Shown here piece after piece: positions 1 to 48,032 of a stretch of 64,000 bases of DNA; positions within the stretch are counted from its first letter, which is position 1; each line of letters starts with the position of its first letter. The DNA is taken from the NCBI GenBank assembly GCA_016213945.1, contig JACQZF010000048.1, positions 33,854 through 97,853 of the forward strand, given 5' to 3'. This stretch comes from Nitrospirota bacterium (lineage in GTDB: Bacteria; Nitrospirota; Thermodesulfovibrionia; UBA6902). Made by a program: the position numbers and the translations under genes. The notes beneath the pieces were generated by a model. The model was not told the DNA's origin, searched no databases, and saw nothing but the letters and a program-made list of their open reading frames with translations.

Positions 1-2
1 CG

Positions 3-380
3 GGTGTTTTCTCAAGTCATTATCTCCTTGAACGCCTGCCGCAGGCAGGACCAAAATTATGGCCCTCAGATGAAGAAGTATCTTCGCTCAAAGGCTTCCT
101 CAAATGGCTTGAGCGTGAGATCGGCACGGCAATTGACGAACTAACAAATAAAACAGCAATCAAGGAATATCATGAACACGACTTCAATCAGTTTCTTGAC
201 GTTCTCAAGAGAAATAAAAACAAACTCTCAATAGACCCTTCAGACCGCAAGAAACAGGAACTCCTCGAAAAGCATTTCACAATAAGTATGTCGAGACTTG
301 AGCCATTGAAAAAAAGAATTGCTGAAACAGATAACTTAATAGATGAAATTGTCTTTAGGCTATACGGATTGACGGATGAG
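3..380 (+). CDS. C-terminal fragment (gene runs off the window start) of an N6-adenine DNA methyltransferase / Type IIG-IIL R-M enzyme (MmeI/Eco57I/BREX PglX-like). There is an apparent +1 frameshift at ~359-361: the canonical tail ...VFRLYGLTDEEIKIVKGGSVDG* lies in another frame and ends at 420.
   Basis: Frame 3 translates ...LSIDPSDRKKQELLEKHFTISMSRLEPLKKRIAETDNLIDEIVFR then reads PIRIDG*. The neighbouring frame reads LGLYGLTDEEIKIVKG*, the hallmark C-terminus of this methyltransferase family. The sequence aggcctatac looks like agg-cta-tac with one extra c. Confidence 0.5.
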
Positions 381-621
381 GAGATAAAGATTGTGAAAGG
401 TGGAAGTGTAGACGGGTGAATGAGAACAGGAGTACTTGCGCTGGTTCAATCTTGCAGATTGAACCAAGATTAACTCCATGATTAATTTTTTTGGTTTAGG
501 TTGCAAGCCTGAACCAGCAGGAAGGCGAGTTGGTGAAATATAAATAAGGGAGCTACGAAAAGTTTGAGGTTAATTAGCTCAAAGGATATACTATGTCCAT
601 AATAAACATGGGAGGTTTTAT

Positions 622-855
622 ATGACCACACAATCGTATAAAGAAAAGATAACGGCAAACCCGGACATAATGCTTGGCAAGCCGGTCATTAAAGGCACAA
701 GGATTACAGTTGAGTTGATATTGAGAAAATTGTCGGAGGGCGTTTCAATAGAAGAATTATTGACCTCCTACCCGCATCTGACAAAAGACGATATTTTGGC
801 AGCTCTTTCATATTCCGCAGACGTAATATCACAGGAGGAGTTAATTGCCTCTTAA
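622..855 (+). CDS. DUF433 family protein (HTH-like; antitoxin-like partner of DUF5615)
   Basis: 77 aa, MTTQSYKEKITANPDIMLGKPVIKGTRITVELIL..., which fits the DUF433 signature. It overlaps the next gene by 11 nt. Confidence 0.6.
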   Translation: MTTQSYKEKITANPDIMLGKPVIKGTRITVELILRKLSEGVSIEELLTSYPHLTKDDILAALSYSADVISQEELIAS

Positions 856-1207
856 ACTCATTGCAGATGAAAGCCTTGATTTTAGAATTGTAGTAAAACT
901 GAGGGATATGGGCTTTGATGTTATATCAGTCTTAAAAGAATACCAGGGCATATCCGACAAAAAGGTGTTAGAGCTGACAAGGCAGCATAATGCAATACTG
1001 ATAACAGAAGACAGCGATTTCGGGGAATGGGTATTTGCGCACAAAGAGAAGAATATCAGCGTCGTATTTTTAAGATACAAGCATGAGCAGATTGAAGACA
1101 TTTCATCTTCATTGGTCAAGCTTTTGAATAAATATCAGATCGATCTATACGGTAAATTTGTCGTGATTACGCCTCGCAAGATAAGAATCAGAGAGATTTA
1201 CAAATAA
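845..1207 (+). CDS. DUF5615 family PIN-like protein (putative toxin partner of DUF433)
   Basis: 120 aa with the conserved pairing and overlap with DUF433. The acidic residues (DES...TEDSDF) are consistent with a PIN-like fold. Confidence 0.5.
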   Translation: MPLKLIADESLDFRIVVKLRDMGFDVISVLKEYQGISDKKVLELTRQHNAILITEDSDFGEWVFAHKEKNISVVFLRYKHEQIEDISSSLVKLLNKYQIDLYGKFVVITPRKIRIREIYK

Positions 1208-1344
1208 ACATTCTTTCAAGAAGAGGGGGATACTGTCTTATTTAAGTAAAGCAGAGGCGCAATCAGCGGCTGTTTAAACTCGTCAATAATTGAAATCAGT
1301 AAAGAGGATCGACTTAACGGCGAGATTAGATTAGTTATCGTCCC

Positions 1345-3678
1345 TCAAATATTCTCCGTCATCTCCCACACGCCGCAGGGGCAGATGCCGGCGCAGAAGC
1401 TGCAGCCGATGCAGAGGTTTTCGTCAACCACGTATTCGTATGAGCCGTCGGGATTGTCCTTCCTGCTGATCGCCCCGTAATAGCATGTCGCCTCGCACAT
1501 GTGGCAGTCCCTGCATACGGCGCAGGACATGCAGCGGTTGGCCTCTTTTTCAGGGGTGAAGGGCTCGCCTTTGCAGATATCGTAATAGGAGGTTTTTATC
1601 TTTTCATAGGGGACCAGCGGTTTTTTAGCCGGCATGTAATAAGACCTTCCTGCAAGCAGGGCGTGTACGGCGTCAGCGGCCTTTCTGCCGTGACCGATGG
1701 CGTGCGTCACGAGTCCGAGCCTGGTTGCATCGCCGATCGCATAAACCTTGGGATCGGAGGTATGCCCGACTTCGTCAGATTCTATCCAGCCGTTCTTGTT
1801 TGTGTGAATACTTGGAATCAGGAACTCGGTCATTGGCGTATCGCCGATTGATATCACAACAACATCCGCGTCAAGCGATGAGCCGTCGGTGAAGTAGATC
1901 TTCTTTTCTTCCTTTACAAATTTTTCGGTGAACTTCGGCCAGAGGATCTTCGTTCCCAATGCCTGGGCGATCTCAAGCTCCTTGCCGAATGCCGCGGGTT
2001 TCTGAATATCAACTGCCGTCACCTCTTTCGCGCCGCAGTGGAAGGCCTGGGCCGCAACGTCCATTCCTACATTTCCCGCTCCGATGACGACAACTCTCTT
2101 GTCTTTCAATTTCGGGGCATCGCCGATATTTATTCCCTTCAAAAAGTCATATGCGGAAACCGTGTCCTCCGCCCCGGGGACATTCATCATCCTCGGCTTG
2201 TGCGCCCCGCACGCAACTACTACAGCATCATGCTTTTTGTATATATCTTCAAACTTCTTTTTATTCACCGCTGCCTTCAAATGGACTTTCACGCCGATCT
2301 TTTCAAAACGCGAAAGTTCATTTATAAGGACCTCCTGAGGAAGCCTTTCTCTTGGGATGCAGAGTTCGAGTTTGCCGCCAAGCTTTTCCGCTGCCTCGTA
2401 AAGGTCAACGTCATGCCCTTTCAGCGCAAGCTGCCATGCTGCGGACAGTCCGCCGGGGCCGCCGCCGATGATGGCAACTTTTTTGTTTGTCTTTTTCTCG
2501 CGCTTTGGAAGCTTTAAATCAACACTCGCCCTGCCCAGTTCCTTGATATTGAAAGGCGTATCAACTTGCGCCCTTGTGCATGTCTGCATACAGAGGTTGG
2601 GGCATATCTCGCCGCATACTGAAGCGGGAAGCGGGCTGTATTGCAAAACAAGCTCCAATGCCTCATGGAGTTTTCCAGCCCGGATTAGCTGCGCGCGTTT
2701 TTGCGTAGGTATTCCGCTTGGGCATGCGTATTCGCAGGGTGGAGCGTATTTATAATTATTCCAGACAGGCTTATATCTCCTGTCTTCGCCTGTTGTTATA
2801 TACGGAAGAACAGTGAAAGGGTGATTCAGATATTCCGCGAAGATCCCGCCCTTGCCGACACCCGTTTCCCAGATATTACTCCGGAATTCGGCGATGGGCA
2901 TCTTGAAGACTTTCTTCTTCGCGCGTTCCTGCGCTGTGTAGGGGGCGAGCTTTTTCCAATCGTCCTTTGAGCGGGTAAGTGTGTCAAGATATTCGGTGCG
3001 CTCTATTGCCGCAAGATAGGGCTTCATGTTTTCTGTGAGCCATTGCCAGTCCTGATCGGTAAGATCAAGGAGCCTGACATCGCCTTCGCTGTAGCCCTGG
3101 ATCGGCCCGCGGAAATACACCATGCCGCCAACCATGCCGACACACGGGCGGTAGCCTAAAACATTGTCAGGATTCCTCGGATCTACTCCGCAGACAACAG
3201 CAATGCCGCCTGCCTTGAATTCCGCGAATGTATCTCCCACGTCCCTGAAATACCATGACTGAGGCGGGTCGAATTTCGGGTTGTGCTTTGTCATCGTATC
3301 GCAGCGCGCGCCTCCGCTTCCCTGCACATAGAGGACCCCCTGTGCAGCGGCATTGTGTGCGCCGTTAGTGACATCGCCTAACACGGTTATCTTCGCGCCG
3401 CAGTTTATCCAGCCCACATCGTCAGAGGAGCTCCCTTTTACAATAATCTCTGTGCCGTACATGCCCATACTGCCGAGCCTCTGCCCGACAGGCCCTTCCA
3501 CGGTAAGCTTTACAGCCTCGCCTCTTGGCCAAACCCTTCCGCCGATGCCGTGCTGACCGTCAGCAATAATCTGAATTTCGCGCGCGCCCTGTCTGACTGC
3601 GTCCTGGATCTCTTCTTCAAAAATCCTTGACGGGGTGCGCTTGCCTTTGATGTTTCCTTGTAGAGTTATCTTTTTCAT
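1345..3678 (-). CDS. Glutamate synthase domain 3 (GXGXG) fused to a GltD-like NADPH-dependent FAD oxidoreductase and C-terminal 4Fe-4S ferredoxin domains
   Basis: The N-terminus has GXGXG-domain repeats (GQRLGSMGMYG, VLGDVTNGA, VQGSGGARC). The centre has the Fe-S cysteines CEYACPSG/CGEICPNLC, a dinucleotide motif AIIGGGPGGLSAAWQLA and a second motif VVVIGAGNVGMDVA. The C-terminus reads CMSCAVCRDCHMC...CIGCSFCAGICPC. Confidence 0.8.
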   Translation of the reverse strand: MKKITLQGNIKGKRTPSRIFEEEIQDAVRQGAREIQIIADGQHGIGGRVWPRGEAVKLTVEGPVGQRLGSMGMYGTEIIVKGSSSDDVGWINCGAKITVLGDVTNGAHNAAAQGVLYVQGSGGARCDTMTKHNPKFDPPQSWYFRDVGDTFAEFKAGGIAVVCGVDPRNPDNVLGYRPCVGMVGGMVYFRGPIQGYSEGDVRLLDLTDQDWQWLTENMKPYLAAIERTEYLDTLTRSKDDWKKLAPYTAQERAKKKVFKMPIAEFRSNIWETGVGKGGIFAEYLNHPFTVLPYITTGEDRRYKPVWNNYKYAPPCEYACPSGIPTQKRAQLIRAGKLHEALELVLQYSPLPASVCGEICPNLCMQTCTRAQVDTPFNIKELGRASVDLKLPKREKKTNKKVAIIGGGPGGLSAAWQLALKGHDVDLYEAAEKLGGKLELCIPRERLPQEVLINELSRFEKIGVKVHLKAAVNKKKFEDIYKKHDAVVVACGAHKPRMMNVPGAEDTVSAYDFLKGINIGDAPKLKDKRVVVIGAGNVGMDVAAQAFHCGAKEVTAVDIQKPAAFGKELEIAQALGTKILWPKFTEKFVKEEKKIYFTDGSSLDADVVVISIGDTPMTEFLIPSIHTNKNGWIESDEVGHTSDPKVYAIGDATRLGLVTHAIGHGRKAADAVHALLAGRSYYMPAKKPLVPYEKIKTSYYDICKGEPFTPEKEANRCMSCAVCRDCHMCEATCYYGAISRKDNPDGSYEYVVDENLCIGCSFCAGICPCGVWEMTENI

Positions 3679-3698
3679 ATTATCTATATTTCTTGGCT

Positions 3699-3755
3699 GT
3701 CATTCCGGCTTGTTCGGAATCCTTTTTAAGAAGATTCCCGACAAGCGGGAATGAC
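3699..3755. repeat. REP-like palindromic element copy 1 (GTCATTCCGGCTTGTTCGGAATCC...GATTCCCGACAAGCGGGAATGAC) between two glutamate synthase genes
   Basis: Two inverted ~24-nt hairpin units. The termini GTCATTCC...GGAATGAC are shared by all copies. Confidence 0.7.
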
Positions 3756-3803
3756 ATCATTCGGTAACTTCCGCGCTTTTGCTCTTCTGCGCTATTGAAC
3801 TTT

Positions 3804-5465
3804 TTAACATACATAATTAATCTGTAGTCTCTCTGCAATCGCATGGTCGTCTGTGCTGATGCCGTCTGACATGCCGATTGGCAGTTCCGTGCTTCGGCCC
3901 ATTGGGGCGAATATTTTCTTCAACTCTATATCCAATGATTTGTAAACTTCAACCACCCTCTCTGCAACCACATCAGGGTCAAGCCTCCTGTAGAGTTTTG
4001 GGTCCTGAGTCGTGATGCCTCTCGGGCATTTGCCAAGGTTGCATACGTTGCAGCGGTTCATCTCATCTCCATGACAGGCTGCTGCCGCCTGCATGATATA
4101 TTTCCCGATTGAAACAGCGGATGCGCCTAACATGAAGAGCGCTGCAGCATTCGCCGCAAGGTTGCCCTTCTTTCCGACACCTCCTGCCGCAATGAGAGGC
4201 AGTTCATTCTGTTTGCCGTATTTTACGAGGTCGAGATAGCATTCTCTAATATTGGATGCGATGGGATGCCCCATCGTGTCCATTGATACGGCGTATGCCG
4301 CGCCTGTCCCGCCGTCCTCACCGTCAATCGAAAGGGCAGCGGCATACTGATTTCTGACTAAATTATTCAGGACCGCCTTTGCAGTCCGCGTTCCTGAGAT
4401 CTTCGGATAGACAGGGACCCTGAAGCCCCACGCCATGGACATTGACTGGATCATCTTTGCGACAGACTCTTCAATCGAATATTTCGTCTGATGCGTCGGA
4501 GGCGAGGGGAGGTCTACACCCATCGGCACTCCCCGAATCTCTGAGATTAATTTCAAAACCTTGTGCGCCATCAGGAGCCCGCCGTCTCCGGGCTTTGCGC
4601 CCTGCCCGTATTTGATCTCAATCGCGCAGGGGTCTTCGATCATATGAGGGAGCGTCCTGATAATCTCGTCCCAGCCGAAATAACCTGAGGCGATCTGGGG
4701 TATAAAATATTTAATGAACCTCGACTTGAGAAGCCTGTGCGGCATCCCGCCTTCACCTGAGCACATGACAACCGGCATCCCTTCAACTTCATTGAGATAC
4801 GTAATGCCCATTGCAAGCCCTTCCCACATGGTGGGAGAAAGCGCGCCGATGGACATGCTGCCTATCATCACAGGGTATATTTCCCGGACAGGCGGTATGA
4901 ATTTACCGGTAGTTTTATCAGCATCGAGCTTGCCGTCAATCATCTTCAGCGGCAGTTCTTCCGCAGGCAGTATCCTGCCTAAGTACGTACGTATCCTGAA
5001 TTCGTGCCTGCCTGCGTCAAGCGCAGGGTCGGTGAGCATGGAGATTCTTGTAAATCTCAATCTGTCCAAAGTGGAAGGCGACGGATCGTTTCTCCTGCCG
5101 CCCCTTCTGTAGGGATGACCGCCTTTGTTTTTATGGAAGTTGAATTTATGCTGCGGATTATACTCCGGCTCAATTGCCTCGTTGGGACAAACGAGTGTGC
5201 AGGTCCCGCAGCCAATGCAATAGCGTTCTATATTGGTTGTCTGTTTGACCATAGTCGTGACAACCCGCGCTGCTTTGGGTTCAGGTGTCATTCCTTCTGA
5301 CTGTAAAACCCGTTTTACAACAACAACCGGTTCTATTGAAAGCATCGGGCAGACGGCTGTGCACCTGCCGCAGCGTTTGCACCTGTCATCACGCCATCTA
5401 ACAACGTATGGTAGATCTTTTACTGAAAGCTCATGATTATGGTCTAAGCGTGAAGCTGGTTCCAT
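3804..5465 (-). CDS. Glutamate synthase FMN-binding domain protein (archaeal-type domain 2) with an N-terminal 2x[4Fe-4S] ferredoxin
   Basis: It carries CKRCGRCTAVCP / CIGCGTCTLVCP and the Glu_synthase core (GVDLPSPPTHQ..., IDGEDGGTGAA, LIAAGGVGKKGN). Confidence 0.8.
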   Translation of the reverse strand: MEPASRLDHNHELSVKDLPYVVRWRDDRCKRCGRCTAVCPMLSIEPVVVVKRVLQSEGMTPEPKAARVVTTMVKQTTNIERYCIGCGTCTLVCPNEAIEPEYNPQHKFNFHKNKGGHPYRRGGRRNDPSPSTLDRLRFTRISMLTDPALDAGRHEFRIRTYLGRILPAEELPLKMIDGKLDADKTTGKFIPPVREIYPVMIGSMSIGALSPTMWEGLAMGITYLNEVEGMPVVMCSGEGGMPHRLLKSRFIKYFIPQIASGYFGWDEIIRTLPHMIEDPCAIEIKYGQGAKPGDGGLLMAHKVLKLISEIRGVPMGVDLPSPPTHQTKYSIEESVAKMIQSMSMAWGFRVPVYPKISGTRTAKAVLNNLVRNQYAAALSIDGEDGGTGAAYAVSMDTMGHPIASNIRECYLDLVKYGKQNELPLIAAGGVGKKGNLAANAAALFMLGASAVSIGKYIMQAAAACHGDEMNRCNVCNLGKCPRGITTQDPKLYRRLDPDVVAERVVEVYKSLDIELKKIFAPMGRSTELPIGMSDGISTDDHAIAERLQINYVC

Positions 5466-6553
5466 ACCATCACCTCCTGCGCTCCCGGCTTGACGATAAC
5501 CATGTCGTACTTCATGGGGAATATATCCTGAGCTTTATCTCTCACAGATATTACGCTGTCAAGCCCGCACTCCTCGGACATAAATCCGTACTTGCCTTTC
5601 ACGCCGCCGACAACACCCGGCCTGAGTTTCTTGGCGTCCTGGACCATAAGGCACGTCCCGTCCGGCGTAAAGGCAATGACGCAATTCGGGCCGTCTATGC
5701 AGAGCGGTCTCAAGGATATTTTTAACAATCTCGCGACTTCGCTGTCACTTCTTTTATCAATCTCAGACTGTTTAAGCGGCGTAATTACGTCCTTATAATA
5801 TGTAAGCGGATAACCAAGCTGCTTGCAGGTGTAATGCAAAATGTGACAGAAGACTTCGCTGTCGCTGTTGTAACCGATATATCCGGAAAAGTTCCTGCTC
5901 ATTAAAAATTCTCTTATAGGCACGAACGCCGTATTCTCGCCGTTTGTCATCGAGCCGTAACCCTGAATGAAAAAAGGATGACACGCATACATGTTGATAG
6001 CATAATTGGTATTCTGTCTTCCCTGGGCAAAGATAATCTTTGCTTTAAGCGGGGATTTATCAAGGCCGAAAAACTCACTGAGTTCAAGAGGATCGCCTAC
6101 CTCTTTCAATGTCAGGATATCAGGATAGAATGAGAAAACTATAATTGACTCATCACCCTCTCCGAATTTTCTGAGGGCGAGTCTCGTCTTCAGGAGCAGG
6201 TCTTCCTTATCTTCCTGAGCGCTGTATTTGTAGACATCCGGATAATCATAGACACGTGCAAAATAGTGATCGCGGCCAACAATCCCCCTGACCGTTCTGA
6301 GCTTGGGGGTCCAGGTGTATTTCAGTTTGAACCCGAGCTTGTTCATGTAATCATCAAGCGTCTTCATCCCCTCCTTGGAACAAATGCCTGACAGGATAGG
6401 GTATTCCTTCAGCTCCTCAAATTCACCGCCGAGGCTTTTCAGGATAAGCCCCATACCGGAGCCGTCATGCCCTTCCTTCATGGTCTCAAGGGCATTGATA
6501 TTCTCCATCGGAGAGAAGTATTCACTTGATGTTATCGCGGCAAGTCTGCACAT
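5444..6553 (-). CDS. Class II (Ntn) glutamine amidotransferase domain protein (archaeal-type glutamate synthase domain 1)
   Basis: It starts MCRLAAI, giving a Cys2 nucleophile. It is the first gene of a three-gene operon whose order mirrors domain 1-2-3 of GltB. Confidence 0.7.
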   Translation of the reverse strand: MCRLAAITSSEYFSPMENINALETMKEGHDGSGMGLILKSLGGEFEELKEYPILSGICSKEGMKTLDDYMNKLGFKLKYTWTPKLRTVRGIVGRDHYFARVYDYPDVYKYSAQEDKEDLLLKTRLALRKFGEGDESIIVFSFYPDILTLKEVGDPLELSEFFGLDKSPLKAKIIFAQGRQNTNYAINMYACHPFFIQGYGSMTNGENTAFVPIREFLMSRNFSGYIGYNSDSEVFCHILHYTCKQLGYPLTYYKDVITPLKQSEIDKRSDSEVARLLKISLRPLCIDGPNCVIAFTPDGTCLMVQDAKKLRPGVVGGVKGKYGFMSEECGLDSVISVRDKAQDIFPMKYDMVIVKPGAQEVMVWNQLHA

Positions 6554-6886
6554 ATCTTTTTCGTAACTATGCTTTTTATTCAGGCAAAAAGAGCGTCCAT
6601 ACCATTCCCTAAAACATCTTTATGGTAGTAGACGCTGCTGAATGGTTAAAGCGTTCCTCCGAATAATAATACCAATTAGATATGGTTTTTGTAAACTTGG
6701 TTACCGGCCCCGAATCTGCTTTAGAAAAATTGTCAGTGCTAACGAAGCTAAGCAATCACTGTTTTTTGACAATTGCCACGAACCCTCCGGATTTCAGCAA
6801 TGACACGTCAATAAAGGCTTAATGCTTTCTATATCGGAATTCGGGTTGACAGTTGCGCTTTTCTTATTTCGCACTATAATTAAATT

Positions 6887-7369
6887 ATGAAACGTCTCAT
6901 GGCCTTATTCGCTTTTATTATTTACGTCTCAGGCTGCGCCCACGTCGTGCCACAAGAGTTAAGGGACAAAGCAGAGAAGGGGACATCAGTTCCCGCGCTC
7001 TTCAAGGACCCTGATGAATACAAAGGCAGGATTTTCATTCTTGGAGGCGCTATTGTAAGCGCTGTAAACATGCAGGACGGGACATATATTGAGGTGGTTG
7101 AAAAGCCGCTCGATTATCGTGGAAGGCCGGAGTACACGGACATATCCCGCGGCAGGTTTCTTGTTTTATACGAAGGGTATCTTGATACGGCAGTGTTCTC
7201 TCCCGGCAGGGACGTTACCGTGGCCGGCGAGGTTATAGGGACAAGGGTCCGCCATCTTGGAGAAATTAACTACTCATATCTTCTTTTGAGAAGCAGGGGG
7301 CTTTATTTATTAAAACAGGGAAACGGGGTTCCTATTCAGTTTGGGATTGGCATATGGCACAGCTTTTAG
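6887..7369 (+). CDS. slp: Slp family outer-membrane lipoprotein
   Basis: Signal peptide with lipobox VSGC. Its length and sequence (DPDEYKGRIFILGGAIV...) resemble starvation lipoprotein Slp. Confidence 0.6.
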   Translation: MKRLMALFAFIIYVSGCAHVVPQELRDKAEKGTSVPALFKDPDEYKGRIFILGGAIVSAVNMQDGTYIEVVEKPLDYRGRPEYTDISRGRFLVLYEGYLDTAVFSPGRDVTVAGEVIGTRVRHLGEINYSYLLLRSRGLYLLKQGNGVPIQFGIGIWHSF

Positions 7370-7435
7370 TGCGAGTAATACAGACATTATTAAATAAATT
7401 GCATGGTATGTTTTGTTGATAAACCCGGCTGATTT

Positions 7436-7503
7436 GTCATTCCCGCAAGCGAAGCGCGTCGGGAATCCTTCTTGAAGAAAGATTCCGGACAAGCCGGAAT
7501 GAC
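7436..7503. repeat. REP-like palindromic element copy 2 (between slp and tpx)
   Basis: GTCATTCCCGCAAGCGAAGCGCGTCGGGAATCC-N12-GATTCCGGACAAGCCGGAATGAC. Confidence 0.7.
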
Positions 7504-7541
7504 AGAAACAAACACTATTTATTTCATAACGCAAGGAGGAA

Positions 7542-8045
7542 GTGATGGCGGAAATAACATTTAAAGGTTCACCGGTAAACACTATTGGAGAGCTGCCACA
7601 GGCAGGGGAACAGGCGCCGGATTTTCTTCTCACAAAGACCGACCTGTCCGACATATCGTTAAAAGACGTAGCCGGTAAGATAGTGGTCCTGAACATTTTC
7701 CTCAGCATTGACACCCCTGTTTGCGCGGCCTCTGTGCGAAGGTTCAATGCTGAGGTTGATAAGTTGAGCAATACAGTTGTTCTCTGTGTTTCCTCAGACC
7801 TGCCTTTTGCACTTTCCCGTTTCTGCTGCGCAGAAGGTCTCAATAACGTTATTCCCGTATCTGAACTGCGCAACAGGGCCTTTGGCAACCGTTACGGGGT
7901 CAGGATAGCTGAAGGCCCTCTCGCGGGCCTGTTAGCGCGCTCCGTAGTTATCCTTGATGAAAAAGGGAAAGTGATATACACTGAGCTGGTAAAAGAGATT
8001 ACTGAAGAACCCGATTATGAAAAAGTTCTGCGAGCATTGCGATAG
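7542..8045 (+). CDS. tpx: Thiol peroxidase (atypical 2-Cys peroxiredoxin Tpx)
   Basis: Near end-to-end similarity to Tpx (…[21 protein letters not shown]…, [14 protein letters not shown]). Confidence 0.85.
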
Positions 8046-8073
8046 CCTATAAAAAACAAGACAAGGAGGGTTT

Positions 8074-8523
8074 ATGATCTCAAAGATTCTCGTGCCCACA
8101 GATGGTTCCGGCACATCGCAGAAAGCTGTTGACTTTGCAATAGGGCTTGCAAAACAGACAGATGCATCCATAATTCTTATCAGCGTAATCGATCAAAGCG
8201 CCTATATTGCCACAGCCATATCAGCGGAGGCCGCGCCTACTCACCTCATAGAGCCAATAGGGGAATATCTCCGAACTGCCGCCGAGGCATTGCTTGAAGA
8301 GGGGAAAAAATTATGCAAGAAGAACGGTATCCATGCAACAAAAATTATAAGCACGGGTCATCCCGTTGAGGAAATAATAAATGAAGCGGAAAAAGCAAAC
8401 GTTGATATCATTGTCATCGGCTCGCACGGAAGAAGCGCCATCGCCTCAGCGGTCCTCGGCAGCGTTACATTCGGGATCATACACAAAGAGTCAAGATTTC
8501 CTGTTCTCGTAGTTAGAAGGTAA
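8074..8523 (+). CDS. Universal stress protein (UspA family)
   Basis: 149 aa starting ILVPTDGS and ending ...VIGSHGRS...GSVT... A GC-rich hairpin with a T-tract follows at 8526-8560. Confidence 0.8.
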   Translation: MISKILVPTDGSGTSQKAVDFAIGLAKQTDASIILISVIDQSAYIATAISAEAAPTHLIEPIGEYLRTAAEALLEEGKKLCKKNGIHATKIISTGHPVEEIINEAEKANVDIIVIGSHGRSAIASAVLGSVTFGIIHKESRFPVLVVRR

Positions 8524-8525
8524 CC

Positions 8526-8560
8526 GCAGGGGCAGGGTAACCCCGCCCCTGCATTTTATA
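8526..8560 (+). terminator. Rho-independent terminator after usp (GCAGGGGCAGGGTAACCCCGCCCCTGC + ATTTTAT)
   Basis: GC-rich perfect stem plus a T-tract. Confidence 0.5.
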
Positions 8561-9995
8561 CACATTCTTTATTTAATGTGGTTTCAGGGACAGGCATATA
8601 ATTTTTCAATGCCGTGACGTGTTGCAGCGCGTGTAAATTTTCTACTTCCACGGGTTGGGTTAAATCCCGTGACCTTGCCCTTGCGAGACCCCAAACAACT
8701 ACGGAACAGCCTGTTGCTATAAAACATAAAATTCCCGCAAAGACAAATGCCATGACGTACTGCTGCGTTGCGTCATAGAGCACGCCTCCCACAACAGGGC
8801 CGAGGATGCCTGCAACGCCATACGCTGTAAATATCCATCCGTAGTTTACTCCGAGATTCTTAGTCCCGAAATAGTCGGCGGTTGCCGACGGGAAAAGTGC
8901 AAAGATCCCGCCGTAATTCAACCCTACCCATGCAGAGGCAAGGAATATAGATACGTGTGATTCAACGCTTACAAGTAGCATAAAAGCCATGCCTTGTGCA
9001 AGAAACATAATCATCATGGCACGCGGTCTGTCAATAAGATCACTGACCTTGCCCCAGAAGACGCGTCCGAGTGCATTGAAGATAGCAAGGATGCCGATGG
9101 GTTCGACAAAACGTCCAAAGGTGCCCATCCATTCAGGGGCAAAAGTTTTCCCCTTGAGAATTGCGCCCATCAAAGGATTCCACTGGCCGATAGCCATTAA
9201 TCCTGATGTGGCTCCAAAAATAAATGTGAGCCACAGCATACAGGAAAGCGGTGTATTGAGCATCTCTCTCCACTCTACATCATGCGGAGTCTGATTTTTG
9301 ACCTTACCTGAATTCCAGCCCACGGGCTGCCACCCTGCCGGGGGATTACACAAAAGTGAAGCGCCGAGAATAACGAAAACAGCGCTGGTAAAGCCGTGAA
9401 GGACAAAAAATGTCTGCCAGCCGATCCCAAATCCGTTCCCTTTGGAAATACCGAGGGCTATCATCAGGATTTGTGACAAACCCATGGCCTCTCCTCCTGT
9501 CCCAGGCTGTTGTAAAAGTATGGATGCGGGTCCAGCAAAAAAGAGCGCCCCTGCTCCGAAACCGGCAACTGACAAACCTGTGATCAAGCCCTTTTTATCC
9601 GGGAACCACTTTACTGCGGCGGCAATAGGACAGACATATGCAAATCCTATCCCTGCGCCACCGATAATTCCATATGTGAGATACAGCGTCCACGGATGGC
9701 TTTTGTCAACCAGCAATGCCCCGAGCAGAAAAGAAATGCCAAGAAGGATGCCGCCAAATGATGCTACCTTGCGTGGCCCGATACGGTCCTGCAAACGGCC
9801 TGCCGGGATCATGATAGCGGCAAAGGTGAGCAAAGAAAACGAGAACGCCCACTGAGTTGTTGTGCGGCTCCATCCGAATTCCGCTTCAAGAGGCTTTACA
9901 AAAACGCTGAACGCGTAAACAGTTCCCAAAACTACCTGGACAATCAATGCCCCGGCTAAAACAGTCCAGCGGTTTTTATTTTTTTCTTCATTCAT
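8556..9995 (-). CDS. MFS transporter, oxalate/formate antiporter (OFA) family-like
   Basis: 479 aa with 12 predicted TM segments. The N-terminus (WTVLAGALIVQVVLGTVYAFSVF) is OFA-like. Confidence 0.65.
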   Translation of the reverse strand: MNEEKNKNRWTVLAGALIVQVVLGTVYAFSVFVKPLEAEFGWSRTTTQWAFSFSLLTFAAIMIPAGRLQDRIGPRKVASFGGILLGISFLLGALLVDKSHPWTLYLTYGIIGGAGIGFAYVCPIAAAVKWFPDKKGLITGLSVAGFGAGALFFAGPASILLQQPGTGGEAMGLSQILMIALGISKGNGFGIGWQTFFVLHGFTSAVFVILGASLLCNPPAGWQPVGWNSGKVKNQTPHDVEWREMLNTPLSCMLWLTFIFGATSGLMAIGQWNPLMGAILKGKTFAPEWMGTFGRFVEPIGILAIFNALGRVFWGKVSDLIDRPRAMMIMFLAQGMAFMLLVSVESHVSIFLASAWVGLNYGGIFALFPSATADYFGTKNLGVNYGWIFTAYGVAGILGPVVGGVLYDATQQYVMAFVFAGILCFIATGCSVVVWGLARARSRDLTQPVEVENLHALQHVTALKNYMPVPETTLNKECV

Positions 9996-10142
9996 GCTTT
10001 TATCTCCCGAATAATTGTTATGGTGTCAGCACAGGCGGGGTAACCCCGGCCATACTGAACTAATCGGGTGATGAAGGGGAAATCTTTAGTTAAAAGAATT
10101 CCTCTTGGCTCTGCTTCGGGGTCAATCAGACACTCCTTTGAC

Positions 10143-10219
10143 TGTCATTCCCGCAATTTGTTGAGCGGGAATCCAGAGTCTTTTCATAAAGAACTGGATT
10201 CCCATTTTCATGGGAATGA
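10143..10219. repeat. REP-like palindromic element copy 3 (between the MFS and isochorismatase genes)
   Basis: GTCATTCCCGCAATTTGTTGAGCGGGAATCC...GGATTCCCATTTTCATGGGAATGAC. Confidence 0.7.
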
Positions 10220-10245
10220 CGAAAAAGCGCGGTTGCAAATAAAGT

Positions 10246-10797
10246 CTACTTTATTCTCTTTACTATCGTTACGAACTCAGGCGTCCCGGCTTTTTCGAGG
10301 AGCTGGAACAAGACCGTTTCAGTACATGTGATCACCGCGCCTGCATCGCGCATGAGCTCTCTGCCGGAGAGGAAATCATCTTTCTTCCTTGAGCAGGCAG
10401 CGTCGCTGACAAGATGAACAAAGTATCCTTTTTCTAAAAGTCCCAGACAAGTCTGCAAGACACAAACATGCGTTTCCATCCCGGTGAGAATGATATGTGT
10501 TTTTCTCAACGAGGCGATTTTCTCAAGAAAACCATCTCCCCTGCAGCAGTCGAATGTGACTTTTTCCAGAGGCTCGTAGTGCGGTACGGCTTCTTTAATT
10601 TCCTTAACTGTCTGGCCGAGTCCTTTTGGATATTGCTCTGTAACGAGGATCGGGATGTTCAGTAGCTTTGCGGCTTCAATGAGGTGAAGGCAGTTATCTG
10701 TCACCCGCTGTTTGTGTTTCATCACAACCGCGAGTTTGTCCTGAATGTCCACGATGACGAGTATAGAGTTGTTTCTGTCGAGGATGAATTTGTCCAT
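10246..10797 (-). CDS. Isochorismatase-family cysteine hydrolase
   Basis: It has the ILVIVDIQ... start and a catalytic Cys region (VHLVSDAACS). Confidence 0.7.
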   Translation of the reverse strand: MDKFILDRNNSILVIVDIQDKLAVVMKHKQRVTDNCLHLIEAAKLLNIPILVTEQYPKGLGQTVKEIKEAVPHYEPLEKVTFDCCRGDGFLEKIASLRKTHIILTGMETHVCVLQTCLGLLEKGYFVHLVSDAACSRKKDDFLSGRELMRDAGAVITCTETVLFQLLEKAGTPEFVTIVKRIK

Positions 10798-10808
10798 GAT
10801 TAAAGATG

Positions 10809-11090
10809 CTATTTGCTGCTTGCTCTAAAATTTTCATAAAACTTTTTGCCAAGAGTATCAACGGGCGGAATATTATAATCCTGTTTTTTCACTAATCCGA
10901 GGCAATTCATTTTCTTTAGAAAATTTTGAAGCTTAATAATATCAGGATTCGCTTTACACTTTTGTTGTGCCTTTTCAAGAGTCTCTATGAGCTTATCGAC
11001 TGTATTCATTTTTCCAGCAAGATATCCCTGACTGTTCTGTCTAAATTTTGCATGTAAAATGTCCCCGCATTTTTGTATAAATTTTATCAC
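10809..11090 (-). CDS. Hypothetical small protein (93 aa) directly downstream of res
   Basis: ORF only; no family recognised. Confidence 0.3.
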   Translation of the reverse strand: MIKFIQKCGDILHAKFRQNSQGYLAGKMNTVDKLIETLEKAQQKCKANPDIIKLQNFLKKMNCLGLVKKQDYNIPPVDTLGKKFYENFRASSK

Positions 11091-11123
11091 AGCACTCTAT
11101 AACGTGTGAAGTTAACTCTTAAA

Positions 11124-14048
11124 TCAAAACAACTGACTCTTCACCTTCTGATGTGTGAGCTTTGCGAATTCCATAATGTCTTTAATTGATGCTCCCTTAT
11201 CCCTCAGACTATAAAAAGTGTTTTCACCAAGCAGCGCATAGTTCCACTCGCACTCCATTCTGTCATCTGGTTTCAGATCATTAATTTTATTGAGCCAATC
11301 CAAAGCAGCAAGTTCTTTTTGCCGCACGTTGGCATCGTTCAAATCTTTGGTTGCCTTTGTTTCGACGAGGTAGATTGATGAATTCACCTTTACGATAAAG
11401 TCCGGATAATAAGACGACAGCATACCGTCGTTGCGGATATAATTTAAGTGGGCGAAATCATGATAATTCTCATTGATCTTCACGAAGCTGTTAACCAGAG
11501 AATCGCTGTCACAGAAGAGCATGAATTTTCTCTCTAATTCTCCTTTGTTTGAAGGGTAAGGAAGTTTCTCATATATTGTCTTTGTAATATCGAGAGAATA
11601 ATTTTCACGCATCTTCAATTCATTTACTTCAGAAAAGTATTTCTTGATTACAACCGCCTCTTCAACATCGATATTGTTCTGCATATCATAAATAATCTGG
11701 CTGAGTTCTTTCACGATATGCTGGATAATGCCTGCCTTTGAAAGCATCAGGACACGCCAGTTGTTGTCCTTAAACGGATCAAAGGTCTCATTGAACAGGC
11801 GGTTTCGAATAAAGTCGTCAACAACCTTTATGAGAGATGCATTATTTATTTGCATTACAGGATAATCCTTCATCGTTCTCTGACTGACTTTGACGAGAGT
11901 GCTGGTAATCACTTTAATGATTTTCGCCATCAATTCGTTATAACTTTTGGCGGTGAATAGGTCGCCTGTTACTTTGTAATCTCCAAAACGGGTCTTAACG
12001 GTTATTTCCTCTGAAACAAAAATCTCCTCTTTGGGAACCATCGCCTTGAGTTTATCCAGTTGATACCAGTCAACTCCTGCAAAATATTTTGTGGATGGCT
12101 CCATTACCTGCAAGGTCTCCTCTCTGTCCCTAATAACAATAGGCCAATAAAGATCATAGTCTTTATAGTTGCTTTTCAATCCGACCTTTATGATATCTCC
12201 GAGGATGCTTTCCCGATCTTCAGGCAAATCATGCGTTTCAGCGATAGAACCTTCCTTAACAAGTTCATCATAAAATTCGATAAAGGCAGGGTGCTCAACA
12301 ATACTCAGAATATCGAGATAATTTGACGGCTCTTCTTTTCTTTGTAAAAGCTTGATCCTGTTCTCAGTCTTTATCTCCTGATAATCCGGTTCGCGCCACA
12401 TGAGGCGCAGACCTCTGCCGATGATCTGTTCAAGAAGGATCGGGGCCTGCGTTGACCGCAACGGAACGATAACACAGATATTGCTTACATCAAAACCTTC
12501 CCGAAGCATCAGGACAGATACAATGACCTTCGGGCTGGAATGATTATCTATGTTAAAAAGCCGCTGTTTAACTTTCCCCCATTCCTTTGCAGGTATTGAG
12601 CCTTTCTTGTCTGAATCTATCTGAACAACATCTTCTTCGCCAAGCCCTTCGTTGTCAGCAAGAAACTGCGTCACAAAAGGAGAAACCTTTGTATCCTCGC
12701 ATATCACCAGCATCTTTGGATGCTTGTCTGACATTCCAGATGTATCAGAAGTTAAAGTCACAAACTGTTCTTCCAGTATCATTAATTTCTGCAAGCCTGC
12801 CCTGAGCATGAGCTTCTGCCCGTCAGAAAGACCGACCACTGTATTCCCTTCACGGACAGCTTTGAAATCAAGCTCCATTGTGGCAATCTCCTTACGCTTA
12901 TCAAGAGTAATTGTCTTCACAAGTCCCTGATGAATGGCTGTCTTAAGATCAAAGTCCACGACAATATGAGGGAAGAAATGTTTCGTCCTTTTCTGTCCGC
13001 TTCCGGTCACATCATAGGGAGTTGCTGAAAAATCAATCTGGATAAAACTTCTGCCTTTGCCTTCGGCAATTTTGTTCAGCGATTTCTGCCATTCAACTTC
13101 AGAGACGATACCGGCCTTCTTTGTTTCATGAATGTGGTGCGCCTCGTCATTAAAGACGACCATATTCTCAAGTCCTGCGAGATATTCAATCTCACCCCCG
13201 CTCAAATACTGATTATCGAGAGTTTCGAGGGAATGTCCTGTTGACGTGCCGGGCGTGATCGGGAATATTTCCTTTACCGCCTTTGAAGGGTCTTCCAATG
13301 GAGCTGTCTCAGTGTATTCCTCTTCTTCAACTCCTGACAAGAGATGCCAATTGGTAATGGCGATCATTCCGTCACCGGTAATCTTCTTTCCTATCTCTTC
13401 TTTTCTAACAACATTGGATTGGATAAAGCCAAAGAGTGTTTCTTTATATGCAGAAGGGATGAACAAGTCCTCGAACTTTTTGAAGTCCGATGTGGCAAAG
13501 TTCCTTGTACCGTCCTGTCCTTCCTTGCCCAGATAAGCGTCCAGAAGTCGTTCATATACAATTAAACCCGGCGCTACGATTAAAAACCTTTGGGAATAAA
13601 GACCGCTTGGCGATTCTTCATGTCTTGCATTGAGATATTGCCATATCAAGAGAGCATTCAGCACCCATGTCTTGCCAGTGCCTGTAGCCATCTTGATGCA
13701 GTATTTTGGATGGCTGAATTTGTCTTTTTTGAGATAGGACAGATCCATCTCGGCAGTAATGTCACTGCTAACTGAGGAATACATATCGAACACAGACTCT
13801 GCCTTCAAAATTTCATGAGTATAGATTGTATTCAGGATTGCCTGTCTCTGTCCTTCGTGAAAGTTGACTGTCCTTGCGTCACAGAAGGGACCGGAGAACC
13901 AGAACCTGAGCAGGTCTTGCGTAACCGGCGTAGTTTTGCTGATGAAGCTGCCGTTTTCCCATTCGCTGATTACCAGCGCTGAGAGTTCTTTAGCAAATTT
14001 CAATGGTATGTCGCGCGTGCCTGTGTTAAGAGCAATACTCATAATCAA
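11124..14048 (-). CDS. res: Type III restriction enzyme Res subunit (SF2 helicase plus C-terminal PD-(D/E)xK endonuclease)
   Basis: Walker A MATGTGKT, DEAH box VVFNDEAHH, and a C-terminal ...YLVETKATKD endonuclease-type motif. Confidence 0.85.
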   Translation of the reverse strand: MIMSIALNTGTRDIPLKFAKELSALVISEWENGSFISKTTPVTQDLLRFWFSGPFCDARTVNFHEGQRQAILNTIYTHEILKAESVFDMYSSVSSDITAEMDLSYLKKDKFSHPKYCIKMATGTGKTWVLNALLIWQYLNARHEESPSGLYSQRFLIVAPGLIVYERLLDAYLGKEGQDGTRNFATSDFKKFEDLFIPSAYKETLFGFIQSNVVRKEEIGKKITGDGMIAITNWHLLSGVEEEEYTETAPLEDPSKAVKEIFPITPGTSTGHSLETLDNQYLSGGEIEYLAGLENMVVFNDEAHHIHETKKAGIVSEVEWQKSLNKIAEGKGRSFIQIDFSATPYDVTGSGQKRTKHFFPHIVVDFDLKTAIHQGLVKTITLDKRKEIATMELDFKAVREGNTVVGLSDGQKLMLRAGLQKLMILEEQFVTLTSDTSGMSDKHPKMLVICEDTKVSPFVTQFLADNEGLGEEDVVQIDSDKKGSIPAKEWGKVKQRLFNIDNHSSPKVIVSVLMLREGFDVSNICVIVPLRSTQAPILLEQIIGRGLRLMWREPDYQEIKTENRIKLLQRKEEPSNYLDILSIVEHPAFIEFYDELVKEGSIAETHDLPEDRESILGDIIKVGLKSNYKDYDLYWPIVIRDREETLQVMEPSTKYFAGVDWYQLDKLKAMVPKEEIFVSEEITVKTRFGDYKVTGDLFTAKSYNELMAKIIKVITSTLVKVSQRTMKDYPVMQINNASLIKVVDDFIRNRLFNETFDPFKDNNWRVLMLSKAGIIQHIVKELSQIIYDMQNNIDVEEAVVIKKYFSEVNELKMRENYSLDITKTIYEKLPYPSNKGELERKFMLFCDSDSLVNSFVKINENYHDFAHLNYIRNDGMLSSYYPDFIVKVNSSIYLVETKATKDLNDANVRQKELAALDWLNKINDLKPDDRMECEWNYALLGENTFYSLRDKGASIKDIMEFAKLTHQKVKSQLF

Positions 14049-14364: not shown

Positions 14365-14387
14365 GATTCTGGACAAGCCAGAATGAC
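14365..14387. repeat. Half copy of the REP-like element (GATTCTGGACAAGCCAGAATGAC) in the vapC-res intergenic region
   Basis: It matches the right-hand hairpin unit of the family. Confidence 0.5.
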
Positions 14388-14403
14388 AAAGTTAAGGAAA
14401 ACA

Positions 14404-20418: not shown

Positions 20419-20476
20419 GTCACTCCGGCTTGTCCAGAGTCTTTCTTAAAAAGGATTCCCGACAAGCGGGAATGAC
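20419..20476. repeat. REP-like palindromic element copy 5 (between the antiporter and kinase genes)
   Basis: GTCACTCCGGCTTGTCCAGAGTC...GGATTCCCGACAAGCGGGAATGAC. Confidence 0.7.
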
Positions 20477-46664: not shown

Positions 46665-48032
46665 ATGAAATATCAAAGTCAGAAAATAGCAGTCAATTTT
46701 TACACGGCTGCATTGCTGCTTTTTGCCGTGCAAGTTGTAGTAGGCATAATTGCGGCGCTGCAATTTATGTGGCCGGATTTCTTTATCCTTAACTTCAACA
46801 CCATTCGCACATTGCATATTAATGCGCTGGTTGTTTGGTTGCTGATGGGAATGATGGGCGCGACATATTATGTAGTCACTGAGGAATCGGAAACAGAGTT
46901 GTGGAGCATTCCGCTGGCGCAGCTCCAATTCTGGGCAACCGTCATTGCTGTAACCGCTGTTGTAGTCGGCTATATTGTGATGGGTGTGTTCCCACAGGCT
47001 AATATAGAAGTGTTCGGCACACAGTTGCTAAACGAAGGCCGGGAATACATTGAAGCGCCGAGATGGGCGGACATACTAATCGTCGTATCAGTGCTACTGT
47101 TTTTGTTTAACTGCCTCATGACGGTTTTCAAAACAAAAAAGTTTACCGCGGTCCAGGGAGTGCTGCTTGGCGGCCTGACCTTTCTGGCGCTTATGTATCT
47201 TCCGGGAATGTTTTATACAAAGAGCATGGTGAAAGACCAGTTCTGGTGGTGGTGGGTTGTGCATCTCTGGGTTGAAGGTTCGTGGGAATTAATTGCAGCG
47301 GCGCTTCTGGCATTTATGCTGCATAAACTCCTTGGGGCTGACGTAAAGGTGTTAGCCAAATGGATGTATATCGAGACAGGGCTTGTGCTCTTCACAGGCA
47401 TACTCGGCCTCGGTCACCATTACTACTGGATAGGCACACCGAAATACTGGCTCTGGGTCGGCGGTTTCTTCAGCTCGCTTGAGCCGATACCATTACTGCT
47501 GATGGTGTGGGACGCCTTCAGGACCACACGCGAAACACGCGTAGCTGTGCCAAATAAAATTGGATTGTACCTGACCGTTGCTCACGCAATATTTAATTTT
47601 GTCGGCGCGGGCCTCTGGGGAGTGATACATACACTTCCGCAAGTGAATAAATGGACCCACGGCACGCAGTTGACAACAGCACACGGGCACCTTGCCTTTT
47701 ACGGGGCATATGTACTTTTAATCGTTGCAATGATCTACGTTACCCTGCCGTCAATAAGGGGCGTAAAGGAATTCAACCAGTCAAAGGGTTATCTCGCCTT
47801 CTGGTGGATGACGATCTCAATGGTTTTCATAGTGATAACAATAACAGGCGCCGGAATGGTCCAGACATATCTTGAAAGGCTTCTCGGTCTTGATTATGTA
47901 ACGGTAAAAGCCAGCTACAATCTTTGGTTCTGGATATTCAGGGCGATCTTCGGGGTGGGCTTTCTTGTCGGCGTGTTGATACTTGTTGCTGATTTTTTCA
48001 CTCTCGGCAAAAAACCTTTACCCGCTAAATAA
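46665..48032 (+). CDS. norB: Nitric-oxide reductase large subunit NorB (cNOR, haem-copper oxidase superfamily)
   Basis: Motifs FWWWWVVHLWVEGSWEL, GLGHHYYWIG and THGTQLTTAHGHLAFYGAY. Confidence 0.85.
   Translation: MKYQSQKIAVNFYTAALLLFAVQVVVGIIAALQFMWPDFFILNFNTIRTLHINALVVWLLMGMMGATYYVVTEESETELWSIPLAQLQFWATVIAVTAVVVGYIVMGVFPQANIEVFGTQLLNEGREYIEAPRWADILIVVSVLLFLFNCLMTVFKTKKFTAVQGVLLGGLTFLALMYLPGMFYTKSMVKDQFWWWWVVHLWVEGSWELIAAALLAFMLHKLLGADVKVLAKWMYIETGLVLFTGILGLGHHYYWIGTPKYWLWVGGFFSSLEPIPLLLMVWDAFRTTRETRVAVPNKIGLYLTVAHAIFNFVGAGLWGVIHTLPQVNKWTHGTQLTTAHGHLAFYGAYVLLIVAMIYVTLPSIRGVKEFNQSKGYLAFWWMTISMVFIVITITGAGMVQTYLERLLGLDYVTVKASYNLWFWIFRAIFGVGFLVGVLILVADFFTLGKKPLPAK

Follow-up and report, generated by a model that had tools for sequence, protein, structure and literature searches.

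We analyzed a stretch of 64,000 nucleotides (nt) from contig JACQZF010000048.1 of a Nitrospirota bacterium (the window, hereafter), in which three consecutive minus-strand open reading frames (ORFs), labeled A, B, and C in order of transcription, probably encode the subunits of one glutamine:2-oxoglutarate amidotransferase (GOGAT, or glutamate synthase). As judged from their domains and motifs, these proteins most likely make up a self-contained, pyridine-nucleotide-linked GOGAT, with the reductase built into the third protein. The three ORFs are far beyond what chance would give, since 63-78 orthologues of each, in conserved order, are found among the loci that we fetched from related genomes; A-B-C is a genuine three-gene operon. 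An earlier reading of this DNA from its letters alone (the sequence-only reading) had proposed a three-gene glutamate synthase here, and its coordinates, its lengths of 369, 553, and 777 amino acids (aa), and the MCRLAA... start of the first protein agree exactly with the ORFs.

Protein B matches the flavin mononucleotide (FMN) domain of glutamate synthases. The only relatives of B with solved structures are glutamate synthase large subunits, aligned over residues ~860-1200 of the alpha subunit of glutamate synthase (GltS), and in alignments to 7mfm_G and 1llw_A, B keeps the motifs QIASG.FG, QGAKPG.GG, SPP.H..YSIE, and DGGTGA. At the other end of the protein, several Fer4 families of Pfam match residues 21-99, where two CX2CX2CX3CP motifs hold eight Cys residues that are invariant in 71/71 sequences. 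The FMN-domain protein with its own ferredoxin, as the sequence-only reading had described it, is indeed present, with a Fer4 dicluster (21-99) followed by PF01645 (192-523); residues 100-190 fall outside the assigned domains. There is also a putative iron-sulfur (Fe-S) site next to the FMN. Residues C464, C475, and C480 align with a Cys triad in GltS alpha, a region that we take to be its [3Fe-4S] cluster site, while C472 is extra; all four are invariant in 71 orthologues. The additional Cys suggests that this FMN-adjacent site holds a [4Fe-4S] variant of the cluster.

Protein A has no counterpart in the domain databases that we searched. No model in Pfam or NCBIfam scores above threshold, and even at E <= 10 only GATase_6 appears (E 0.095); a phmmer search of A against the Protein Data Bank (PDB) returns GlmS alone, with E 0.72. 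Clustered at 90% identity, the family to which A belongs forms 4180 clusters without a single precomputed Pfam domain, and its database names are 'glutamate synthase' or 'glutamate synthase domain-containing protein 1'. Its putative catalytic residues are conserved: Cys1 (residue C2, directly after the initiator Met) is invariant in 79/79 sequences, as are the motifs R179-QNTN, N204-GENT, and S230-DS in the family alignment, which we take to be the substrate-Arg, oxyanion Asn-Gly, and Asp motifs of N-terminal nucleophile (Ntn) amidotransferases. A profile of the family finds only class II amidotransferases in the PDB (PurF with E 7e-4; 3mdn with E 0.03), and one distant relative, P0386, bridges A to Pfam GATase_2, GATase_6, and a GXGXG domain.

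The fold places A more precisely. Using an alignment of 87 sequences that included representatives of 30-60% identity, AlphaFold returned a model with a predicted local distance difference test score (pLDDT) of 93.6 and a predicted template modeling score (pTM) of 0.92; an alignment of 8 sequences gave pLDDT 48. In a Foldseek search, the best matches to this model are the N-terminal amidotransferase domains of GltS alpha (7mfm_G, E 7.8e-15, template modeling score over the query, TMq, 0.74). The top matches come from the B. subtilis, Azospirillum, and Synechocystis glutamate synthases (E 7.8e-15 to 7e-10, TMq 0.70-0.74); GlmS and PurF rank behind them, with TMq of 0.4-0.5. By its predicted structure, then, A is a GltS-type amidotransferase, with a fold closer to GltS than to any other amidotransferase. 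A separate amidotransferase had been called from the sequence alone; the structural comparison bears this out in a protein that matches no Pfam model. Of the Pfam domains named at the time, Glu_synthase, GXGXG, Pyr_redox_2, and Fer4 are all found in the operon, while GATase_2 has no match on A.

Two A-like proteins outside the operon deserve mention. P0248 (365 aa, 32% identical to A) is A-like over its full length and has neither the N-terminal Cys (it begins MGNIL...) nor the NGE motif; we presume that it is a paralogue without catalytic activity. Locus L003, from the metagenome-assembled genome CSMAG_664, holds an orphan A-type gene at 3856-4971 (371 aa, 83% identical to A; compare L010), which lies ~55-60 nt 3' of carB, in the same orientation, and is followed by neither B nor C. 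CSMAG_664 carries a complete A-B-C operon as well, and the orphan might serve another amidotransferase partner or be an artefact of assembly or binning.

Protein C is a fusion of a beta-helix, a flavoprotein reductase, and a ferredoxin. Over the full length of C, PF01493 aligns to residues 54-190 with E 2.5e-6 and 27.6 bits, under the gathering score of 32.5; with the N-terminal 300 aa alone, the score is 31.4 bits (E 1.7e-7). A profile built from 15 homologues finds only FwdC/FmdC (FwdC, E 1e-4) and residues 1299-1435 of GltS alpha, its C-terminal beta-helix (E 2e-3), in the PDB, and the homologues of C at L081-L083 give clear PF01493 matches. The GXGXG fold that the sequence-only reading had placed at the N-terminus of C is thus found by the Pfam model, by the score of the fragment, by the PDB profile, and in homologues. 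The linker that follows (199-310) has no Pfam match; its conserved positions include W211, W213, and W241.

As a separate observation on this domain, Cys 93, 126, 163, and 179 of C, within the beta-helix, are conserved in 62-64 of 64 sequences. We know of no metal site in the beta-helices of GltS or FwdC.

The reductase part of C begins with a shortened Fe-S domain. PF14691 (Fer4_20) aligns over profile positions 29-108 of 113 only, so that the usual first CxxC is missing; the six Cys of this domain are invariant in orthologues. In the module for flavin adenine dinucleotide (FAD) and for reduced nicotinamide adenine dinucleotide or its phosphate (NADH or NADPH, together NAD(P)H), C has intact dinucleotide motifs, GGGPGG (405-410) and GAGNVG (534-539), and 63 homologues conserve them. 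At the end of beta-2 in the second Rossmann fold, C has a conserved VTAVDIQ, with an Asp, where NfnI has YRR, and the nucleotide domain aligns best to NADH peroxidase (KKVTVIDI). By the classical acidic-residue rule, the Asp after beta-2 makes NADH a more likely donor than NADPH, and the pocket appears NADH-like rather than NADPH-like. The reductant had earlier been suggested to be ferredoxin and/or NADPH; the NADPH part of that proposal is now less likely than NADH.

Although C was first described as GltD-like, residues 312-700 are nearest to NfnB-like modules (9bov, E 2e-52; 9n5u, E 3e-45; 4ylf, E 4.5e-44; 8oh5, E 5e-36), with GltD itself weaker at about E 1e-24 to 1e-25. The GltD models TIGR01317 and TIGR01318 give C 123 bits against cut-offs of 448 and 483, and PRK12771 gives 330 bits against a cut-off of 516. 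Database names for C vary among 'FAD-dependent oxidoreductase', '4Fe-4S ferredoxin', 'PreT', and 'GltD'.

C ends in the segment 'EANRCMSC' (C716, C719) and a ferredoxin domain, matched by Fer4_7 at 722-770, in which C722, C725, C728, and C732 form one set of ligands and C756, C759, C762, and C766 the other. All ten C-terminal Cys are invariant, and eight of them fit a standard 2x[4Fe-4S] ferredoxin. Together with the six in Fer4_20 this comes to 16 Cys, enough for four all-Cys [4Fe-4S] clusters. In a chimera, placing 'PEKEANRCMSCA' before the truncated Fer4_20 core lifts its Pfam score from 46.1 to 60.6 bits, compared with 48.7-52.4 bits for controls using other CxxC segments or a shuffled version. 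These Cys counts and chimera scores suggest that C716 and C719 may supply the ligands missing from Fer4_20. With Pfam domains for the GXGXG fold, a GltD-like reductase, and the C-terminal dicluster all found in C, the 777-aa fusion described by the sequence-only reading holds.

Read through the operon, the order of genes and domains (GATase, FMN, GXGXG, GltD) is collinear with gltB-gltD, and single-chain eukaryotic NADH-GOGAT has the same domain order. Because of this collinearity, A-B-C resembles a GOGAT whose gene boundaries have shifted, whose central domain is gone, and to which two ferredoxin domains have been added. What our analysis shows is the folds, domains, and motifs of the three proteins, their conserved ligands, the synteny, and a genomic context related to nitrogen; from these we infer that the proteins would form a complex with an ammonia channel, an electron path from its donor, and GOGAT activity. 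In such a complex, A would hydrolyze glutamine through its N-terminal Cys to release ammonia; B would bind FMN and 2-oxoglutarate, make 2-iminoglutarate from the ammonia supplied by A, and reduce it to glutamate. The GXGXG beta-helix of C, the structural domain found at the end of the large subunit of an ordinary GltB, would anchor the complex, and its GltD/NfnB-like flavoprotein would pass a hydride from NAD(P)H, with NADH the likelier, to FAD. Single electrons would then move from FAD through the [4Fe-4S] clusters of C and the clusters of B to the FMN. Such an enzyme would contain about 7 [4Fe-4S] clusters, 4 of them in C and 3 in B, together with 1 FAD and 1 FMN, and no [3Fe-4S] cluster.

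Table 1. Genes, predicted domains, and other features of the A-B-C locus, in window coordinates.
Feature	Position	Strand	Description
Gene A	5444..6553	-	369 aa, MCRLAA...; predicted stand-alone class II (Ntn) glutamine amidotransferase, GltS type; Cys1 codon 6548-6550
Gene B	3804..5465	-	553 aa; ferredoxin domain + predicted FMN/2-oxoglutarate synthase domain (archaeal-type GltB domain 2)
Gene C	1345..3678	-	777 aa; GXGXG beta-helix + linker + GltD/NfnB-like reductase + dicluster ferredoxin
A/B overlap	5444..5465	-	22 nt; end of A / start of B
Region upstream of A	6554..6886	-	non-coding, 333 nt
REP-like palindrome	3698..3756	.	59 nt; two inverted 24-nt hairpin units, within B-C spacer
B residues 21-99	5169..5405	-	2x[4Fe-4S] ferredoxin; C29, C32, C35, C39 + C83, C86, C89, C93
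B residues 192-523	3897..4892	-	Glu_synthase FMN domain; PF01645, E 6.6e-61
B residues 464-480	4026..4076	-	putative Fe-S site by FMN; C464-X7-C472-X2-C475-X4-C480-P
C residues 54-198	3085..3519	-	GXGXG beta-helix (GltB domain 3 / FwdC fold)
C residues 199-310	2749..3084	-	conserved family-specific linker; 110-aa range, Cys-free
C residues 312-389	2512..2745	-	N-terminally truncated Fer4_20; C315, C319, C355, C359, C363, C367
C residues 399-664	1687..2484	-	FAD + NAD(P)H-binding domains; Pyr_redox_2, E 7e-38
C residues 712-770	1369..1545	-	'EANRCMSC' (C716, C719) + 2x[4Fe-4S] ferredoxin

The two ferredoxin domains raise a different possibility for the donor: reduced ferredoxin could dock at the surface diclusters, at the N-terminus of B and/or the C-terminus of C, leaving the FAD/NAD(P) module of C as an auxiliary ferredoxin:NAD(P) link or as a non-catalytic part. 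The N-terminal 2x[4Fe-4S] domain of B is of the archaeal type (PMC2483277), C ends in a ferredoxin-like dicluster, and some relatives (L057) carry a second split GOGAT without a reductase; the split gogat cluster of C. thermocellum is annotated as ferredoxin-linked, and shifts in H2 yield in that organism agree (PMC9888227). We nevertheless consider a ferredoxin-dependent GOGAT rather unlikely. The FAD motif and the second dinucleotide motif of C remain intact throughout its 63 homologues, and all genomes examined have the reductase in one polypeptide with the GOGAT beta-helix, a constancy that is hard to explain unless the reductase is the electron entry point.

The likeness of C to NfnB also brings flavin-based electron bifurcation into play. 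In a bifurcating GOGAT, the NfnB-like FAD of C would split the electron pair of NAD(P)H, sending one electron downhill via B to 2-iminoglutarate and the other uphill via the C-terminal dicluster to ferredoxin, so that reduced ferredoxin would conserve the large free-energy drop of glutamate synthesis; C716 and C719, both invariant, would fill the ligand set of a re-wired Fer4_20 cluster. The reverse reaction, confurcation of NADH and ferredoxin, is conceivable. Beyond the resemblance of the module to those of bifurcating or transhydrogenase enzymes rather than to GltD, such a scheme would account for two separate ferredoxin-like domains, with more clusters than a linear wire needs, in hosts that are strict anaerobes living near thermodynamic limits. 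The 2-oxoglutarate/glutamate couple also lies far above NAD(P)H. However, no sequence feature marks a bifurcating flavin, our search of the open-access literature gave no paper proposing a bifurcating GOGAT, and GltD and DPD share the NfnB-like module without bifurcating (review PMC8097209). Bifurcation by A-B-C is, on balance, improbable.

The operon is widespread. Scanning one genome per species with a degenerate pattern, we found relatives of A in at least 592 species genomes; we analyzed the best 80 of these matches, tallying neighbor families common to at least 3 of 81 loci. Nearly all of the best 80 are from Nitrospirota (Thermodesulfovibrionia), the closest among the matches listed being Nitrospiraceae SURF_45 at 92%. 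A, B, and C are collinear in nearly every locus with enough contig; C is full length in 63 loci, and the GXGXG-reductase fusion is present in every orthologue examined. The 22-nt overlap of A and B recurs in 71/78 related loci, and the median B-C spacer is 72 nt, compared with 125 nt here. At 43% identity there is a further branch with these three genes, in which C measures 767-777 aa and the gene order, the full-length fusion, and the 22-nt overlap are likewise kept; its members include Desulfuromonas, Geobacteraceae, Geothermobacter, Syntrophotalea acetylenivorans, and Deferribacter abyssi. Isolates of Desulfuromonadia and Deferribacteres, such as S. acetylenivorans and D. abyssi, are thus among the carriers. 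A-B-C is not peculiar to its source genome; it is a widespread, automatically annotated, biochemically uncharacterized GOGAT variant.

Where the neighbors of these operons are informative, they concern nitrogen. In S. acetylenivorans, whose operon spans 1,791,355-1,796,421 of CP015519.1, a gene for an ammonium transporter (amt) lies directly upstream of the operon, and at L081 a glutamate dehydrogenase gene (gdh) adjoins it. Among the 80 loci, the operon has NrpR as a neighbor in 10 (for example L061 907-1902, PF01995, E 1e-84), PII in 7 (L048 1956-2297), and a GAF-sigma54 activator directly downstream in 10 (L012 12135-13655). NrpR is known chiefly from methanogens, as their nitrogen repressor. 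Because the neighbors include amt, PII, NrpR, and gdh, the context points to nitrogen (ammonium) assimilation.

Some relatives hold further GltB-like genes. Directly upstream of A-B-C at L057 (1308-5452) is a second, different split GOGAT of two proteins: one of 496 aa with ferredoxin and FMN domains (PF01645, E 7e-91), and one of 884 aa that begins, by eye, like a CGVVGF/HNGD-type amidotransferase and has a Pfam GXGXG domain and no reductase. At L002 and L045, B-like genes (25-31% identity) also lie upstream of A. Some genomes may hold a reductase-less GOGAT beside the reductase-fused form. We set aside DVU1823-1821 of Desulfovibrio vulgaris as a candidate orthologous operon; the one paper found that places it in a nitrogen regulon gives no annotation.

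Several observations weigh against assigning GOGAT activity to A-B-C. The Glu_syn_central domain, which lines the ammonia tunnel, has no Pfam match in A, B, or C at E <= 0.01. Archaeal-type glutamate synthases are likewise not known to have the central domain. A stands outside every curated family in Pfam and NCBIfam, and its family is isolated in sequence, with 250 hits among 1.84 billion representatives. C has a Fer4_20 domain without its first CxxC and, from the profile scores above, is no bona fide GltD but nearer to the NfnB-like modules of bifurcating complexes. In the window itself, no nitrogen-metabolism genes neighbor the operon. No enzyme with the A-B-C architecture has been assayed so far, and for the C. 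thermocellum cluster, GOGAT activity and donor were never measured (PMC9888227). By analogy, the chemistry could also differ, as it does in other split GltB-like systems such as MgsABC (PMC6237917).

This last point defines another explanation, that A-B-C is a split GltB-like enzyme other than GOGAT, either of the N-methylglutamate-synthase/GlxBCD type or a reductive aminase using another 2-oxo acid or amide donor. MgsABC shows that GltB1-, GltB3-, and GltB2-like subunits can serve different chemistry (PMC6237917), and both the divergence and isolation of the A family and the second, more distant Glu_synthase-like gene at some related loci would fit. But no gmaS, mgd, or methylamine genes are among the neighbor families found at 3 or more of the 81 loci, the contexts that are informative (amt, PII, NrpR, gdh) point to ammonium assimilation, the substrate-site motifs of B match those of true GltS, and the predicted fold of A is nearest to GltS; MgsABC, by its published annotation, has no Fe-S/FAD reductase (PMC6237917). 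We consider a non-GOGAT function highly improbable. The assignment of A-B-C as a GOGAT is also consistent with genetics in C. thermocellum, where deletion of the split five-gene gogat cluster raised glutamate dehydrogenase activity 160-fold under ammonium limitation (PMC9888227).

At the locus itself, the overlap of A and B suggests translational coupling, and the G+C content of the three genes (0.47-0.56) exceeds that of the flanks (0.39-0.44). The region upstream of A contains a sigma-70-like site (6695..6666, TTTACA-18-TATTAT, 10/12 matches) that is a candidate promoter only. A consensus scan for a sigma-54 promoter performed at chance level, with zero matches within 6554-6886, and that candidate was rejected. 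An Rfam scan of window positions 1-12000 found no riboswitch or leader family, only a chance RUF20 match over the REP-like element described below. We also looked in the window for conventional gltB, gltD, glnA, or gdh: there is no gltB-sized ORF, and the ten ORFs of ~380-490 aa screened with Pfam are all unrelated. The sequence-only reading had the three genes standing instead of gltB-gltD, a statement that holds within the window only.

The spacer between B and C contains a repetitive extragenic palindromic (REP)-like element, as the sequence-only reading had noted. Its hairpin arms, 3698-3726 and 3728-3756, are 83% complementary, with an RNA fold of -40.1 kcal/mol (z -6.1). The window has 4 recurrences of the 24-nt unit where 0 are expected; copies lie at 7435-7504, 10143-10173, 14365-14388, and 20455-20475, and those window copies that were checked are outside predicted genes. 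Copies in relatives include L001 2919-2941, likewise in the B-C spacer, L041 6293-6315, and L049 3100-3122 and 11964-11986. The family unit, GTCATTCCSGCTTGTCSGGAATC, occurs singly or as inverted pairs and is common to related Thermodesulfovibrionia genomes. The B-C hairpin is a true member of this dispersed REP-like family, being a short imperfect palindrome, intergenic, multicopy, and arranged in inverted pairs. On the mRNA strand no run of U residues follows the hairpin, which rules out an intrinsic terminator on the sense strand; the element might affect how stable the mRNA is or let C be expressed differentially. REP-like units also sit within two apparently spurious ORFs, 7310..7888 and 10068..10331, which encode 'HFHGNDE'-type peptides.

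Two other genes in the window stand apart from the operon. A COX1-family protein (haem-copper oxidase or NorB-like; 455 aa, PF00115, E 9e-66) is encoded at 46665-48032, in the genome of an apparent Thermodesulfovibrionia-type anaerobe. At 20484-21965 is a 493-aa protein that joins a Ser/Thr protein kinase domain and a universal stress protein (Usp) domain.

When ammonium is scarce, cells bring it into biomass mainly through GOGAT. In many strict anaerobes, among them Thermodesulfovibrionia sulfate reducers, Geobacter relatives, and clostridia, the enzyme is known only from split genes, and the lack of any measurement of its donor is a gap in their redox and energy balances. For C. thermocellum this gap is acknowledged and affects metabolic engineering (PMC9888227). 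The fusion in C argues that, in a widespread form of the enzyme, pyridine nucleotide enters through a built-in NfnB-like module, and A-B-C offers a compact three-gene system for the question of the donor in strict anaerobes, including possible coupling to ferredoxin. If the enzyme did bifurcate, anaerobes would recover energy from nitrogen assimilation. There is also a consequence for annotation: because Pfam and NCBIfam miss A altogether and databases disagree on the name of C, pathway reconstructions may score organisms as lacking GOGAT. The architecture is a variant of a known GOGAT and, with the operon in hundreds of anaerobic bacterial genomes, it is not rare.

Compared with known systems, A-B-C has the same catalytic parts in the same linear order as GltB/GltD (A. 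brasilense, and GltAB of B. subtilis; 2vdc, 6s6s, 7mfm) and eukaryotic NADH-GOGAT. With GltB/GltD it shares the Ntn amidotransferase, the FMN domain with its adjacent Fe-S site, the GXGXG domain, and a FAD/NAD(P)H reductase with an N-terminal Fe-S domain. It differs in being three proteins, in joining the beta-helix to the reductase rather than to the synthase, in having no detected central domain, and in its two added dicluster ferredoxin domains. In contrast to the three-Cys [3Fe-4S] site of GltB, B has four invariant Cys; in contrast to GltD, C has no first Fer4_20 CxxC, has an Asp in place of the Arg-Arg NADPH signature, and scores far below the equivalog cut-offs.

The reductase of C has its best sequence matches (312-700) among flavoproteins of the NfnB/StnC/DsrL type (4ylf, 5jca, 8oh5, 9bov, 9n5u), with which it shares a Fer4_20-type domain containing 'PPCxxACP' and the FAD and NAD(P)H domains. 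DsrL-type proteins end in a dicluster ferredoxin too. Unlike C, however, proteins of this type have no GXGXG beta-helix and no operon with GltB-like genes; their partners are NfnA, Bfu subunits, or DsrAB. MgsABC/GlxBCD comprises three subunits that are GltB1-, GltB3-, and GltB2-like (PMC6237917), but it contains neither a ferredoxin domain nor an FAD/NAD(P)H reductase, and is linked to gmaS, mgd, and methylamine use. Our search of the open-access literature for archaeal-type, bifurcating, and Geobacter GOGAT found no description of a fusion like C.

Split glutamate synthases offer the closest comparison for the layout. In C. thermocellum, the cluster Clo1313_2032-2036 is a split bacterial GOGAT that, by its published description, has a ferredoxin-binding subunit (PMC9888227); it has five separate genes rather than three, and it is the only such system we found with genetic evidence for a role in ammonium assimilation (PMC9888227). 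Archaeal genomes encode the GltS domains as separate ORFs (PMC8097209), and M. jannaschii, A. fulgidus, and Thermotogales are described as having a ferredoxin + synthase protein of ~490 residues (PMC2483277). B matches this archaeal type, with an N-terminal two-[4Fe-4S] signature followed by the synthase domain in about 490-550 aa (PMC2483277), and the amidotransferase is also a separate protein there, as is A. In the archaeal systems, however, domain 3 is a free protein and there is no GltD-like subunit, whereas in C domain 3 is fused to a reductase and a ferredoxin. A-B-C also brings its own entry point for pyridine nucleotides, and its hosts are bacterial (Nitrospirota, Desulfuromonadia, Deferribacteres). 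The label 'archaeal-type' given by the sequence-only reading therefore fits the architecture of B and the split layout but not domain 3 and the reductase, and A-B-C is, by its domain arrangement, a hybrid.

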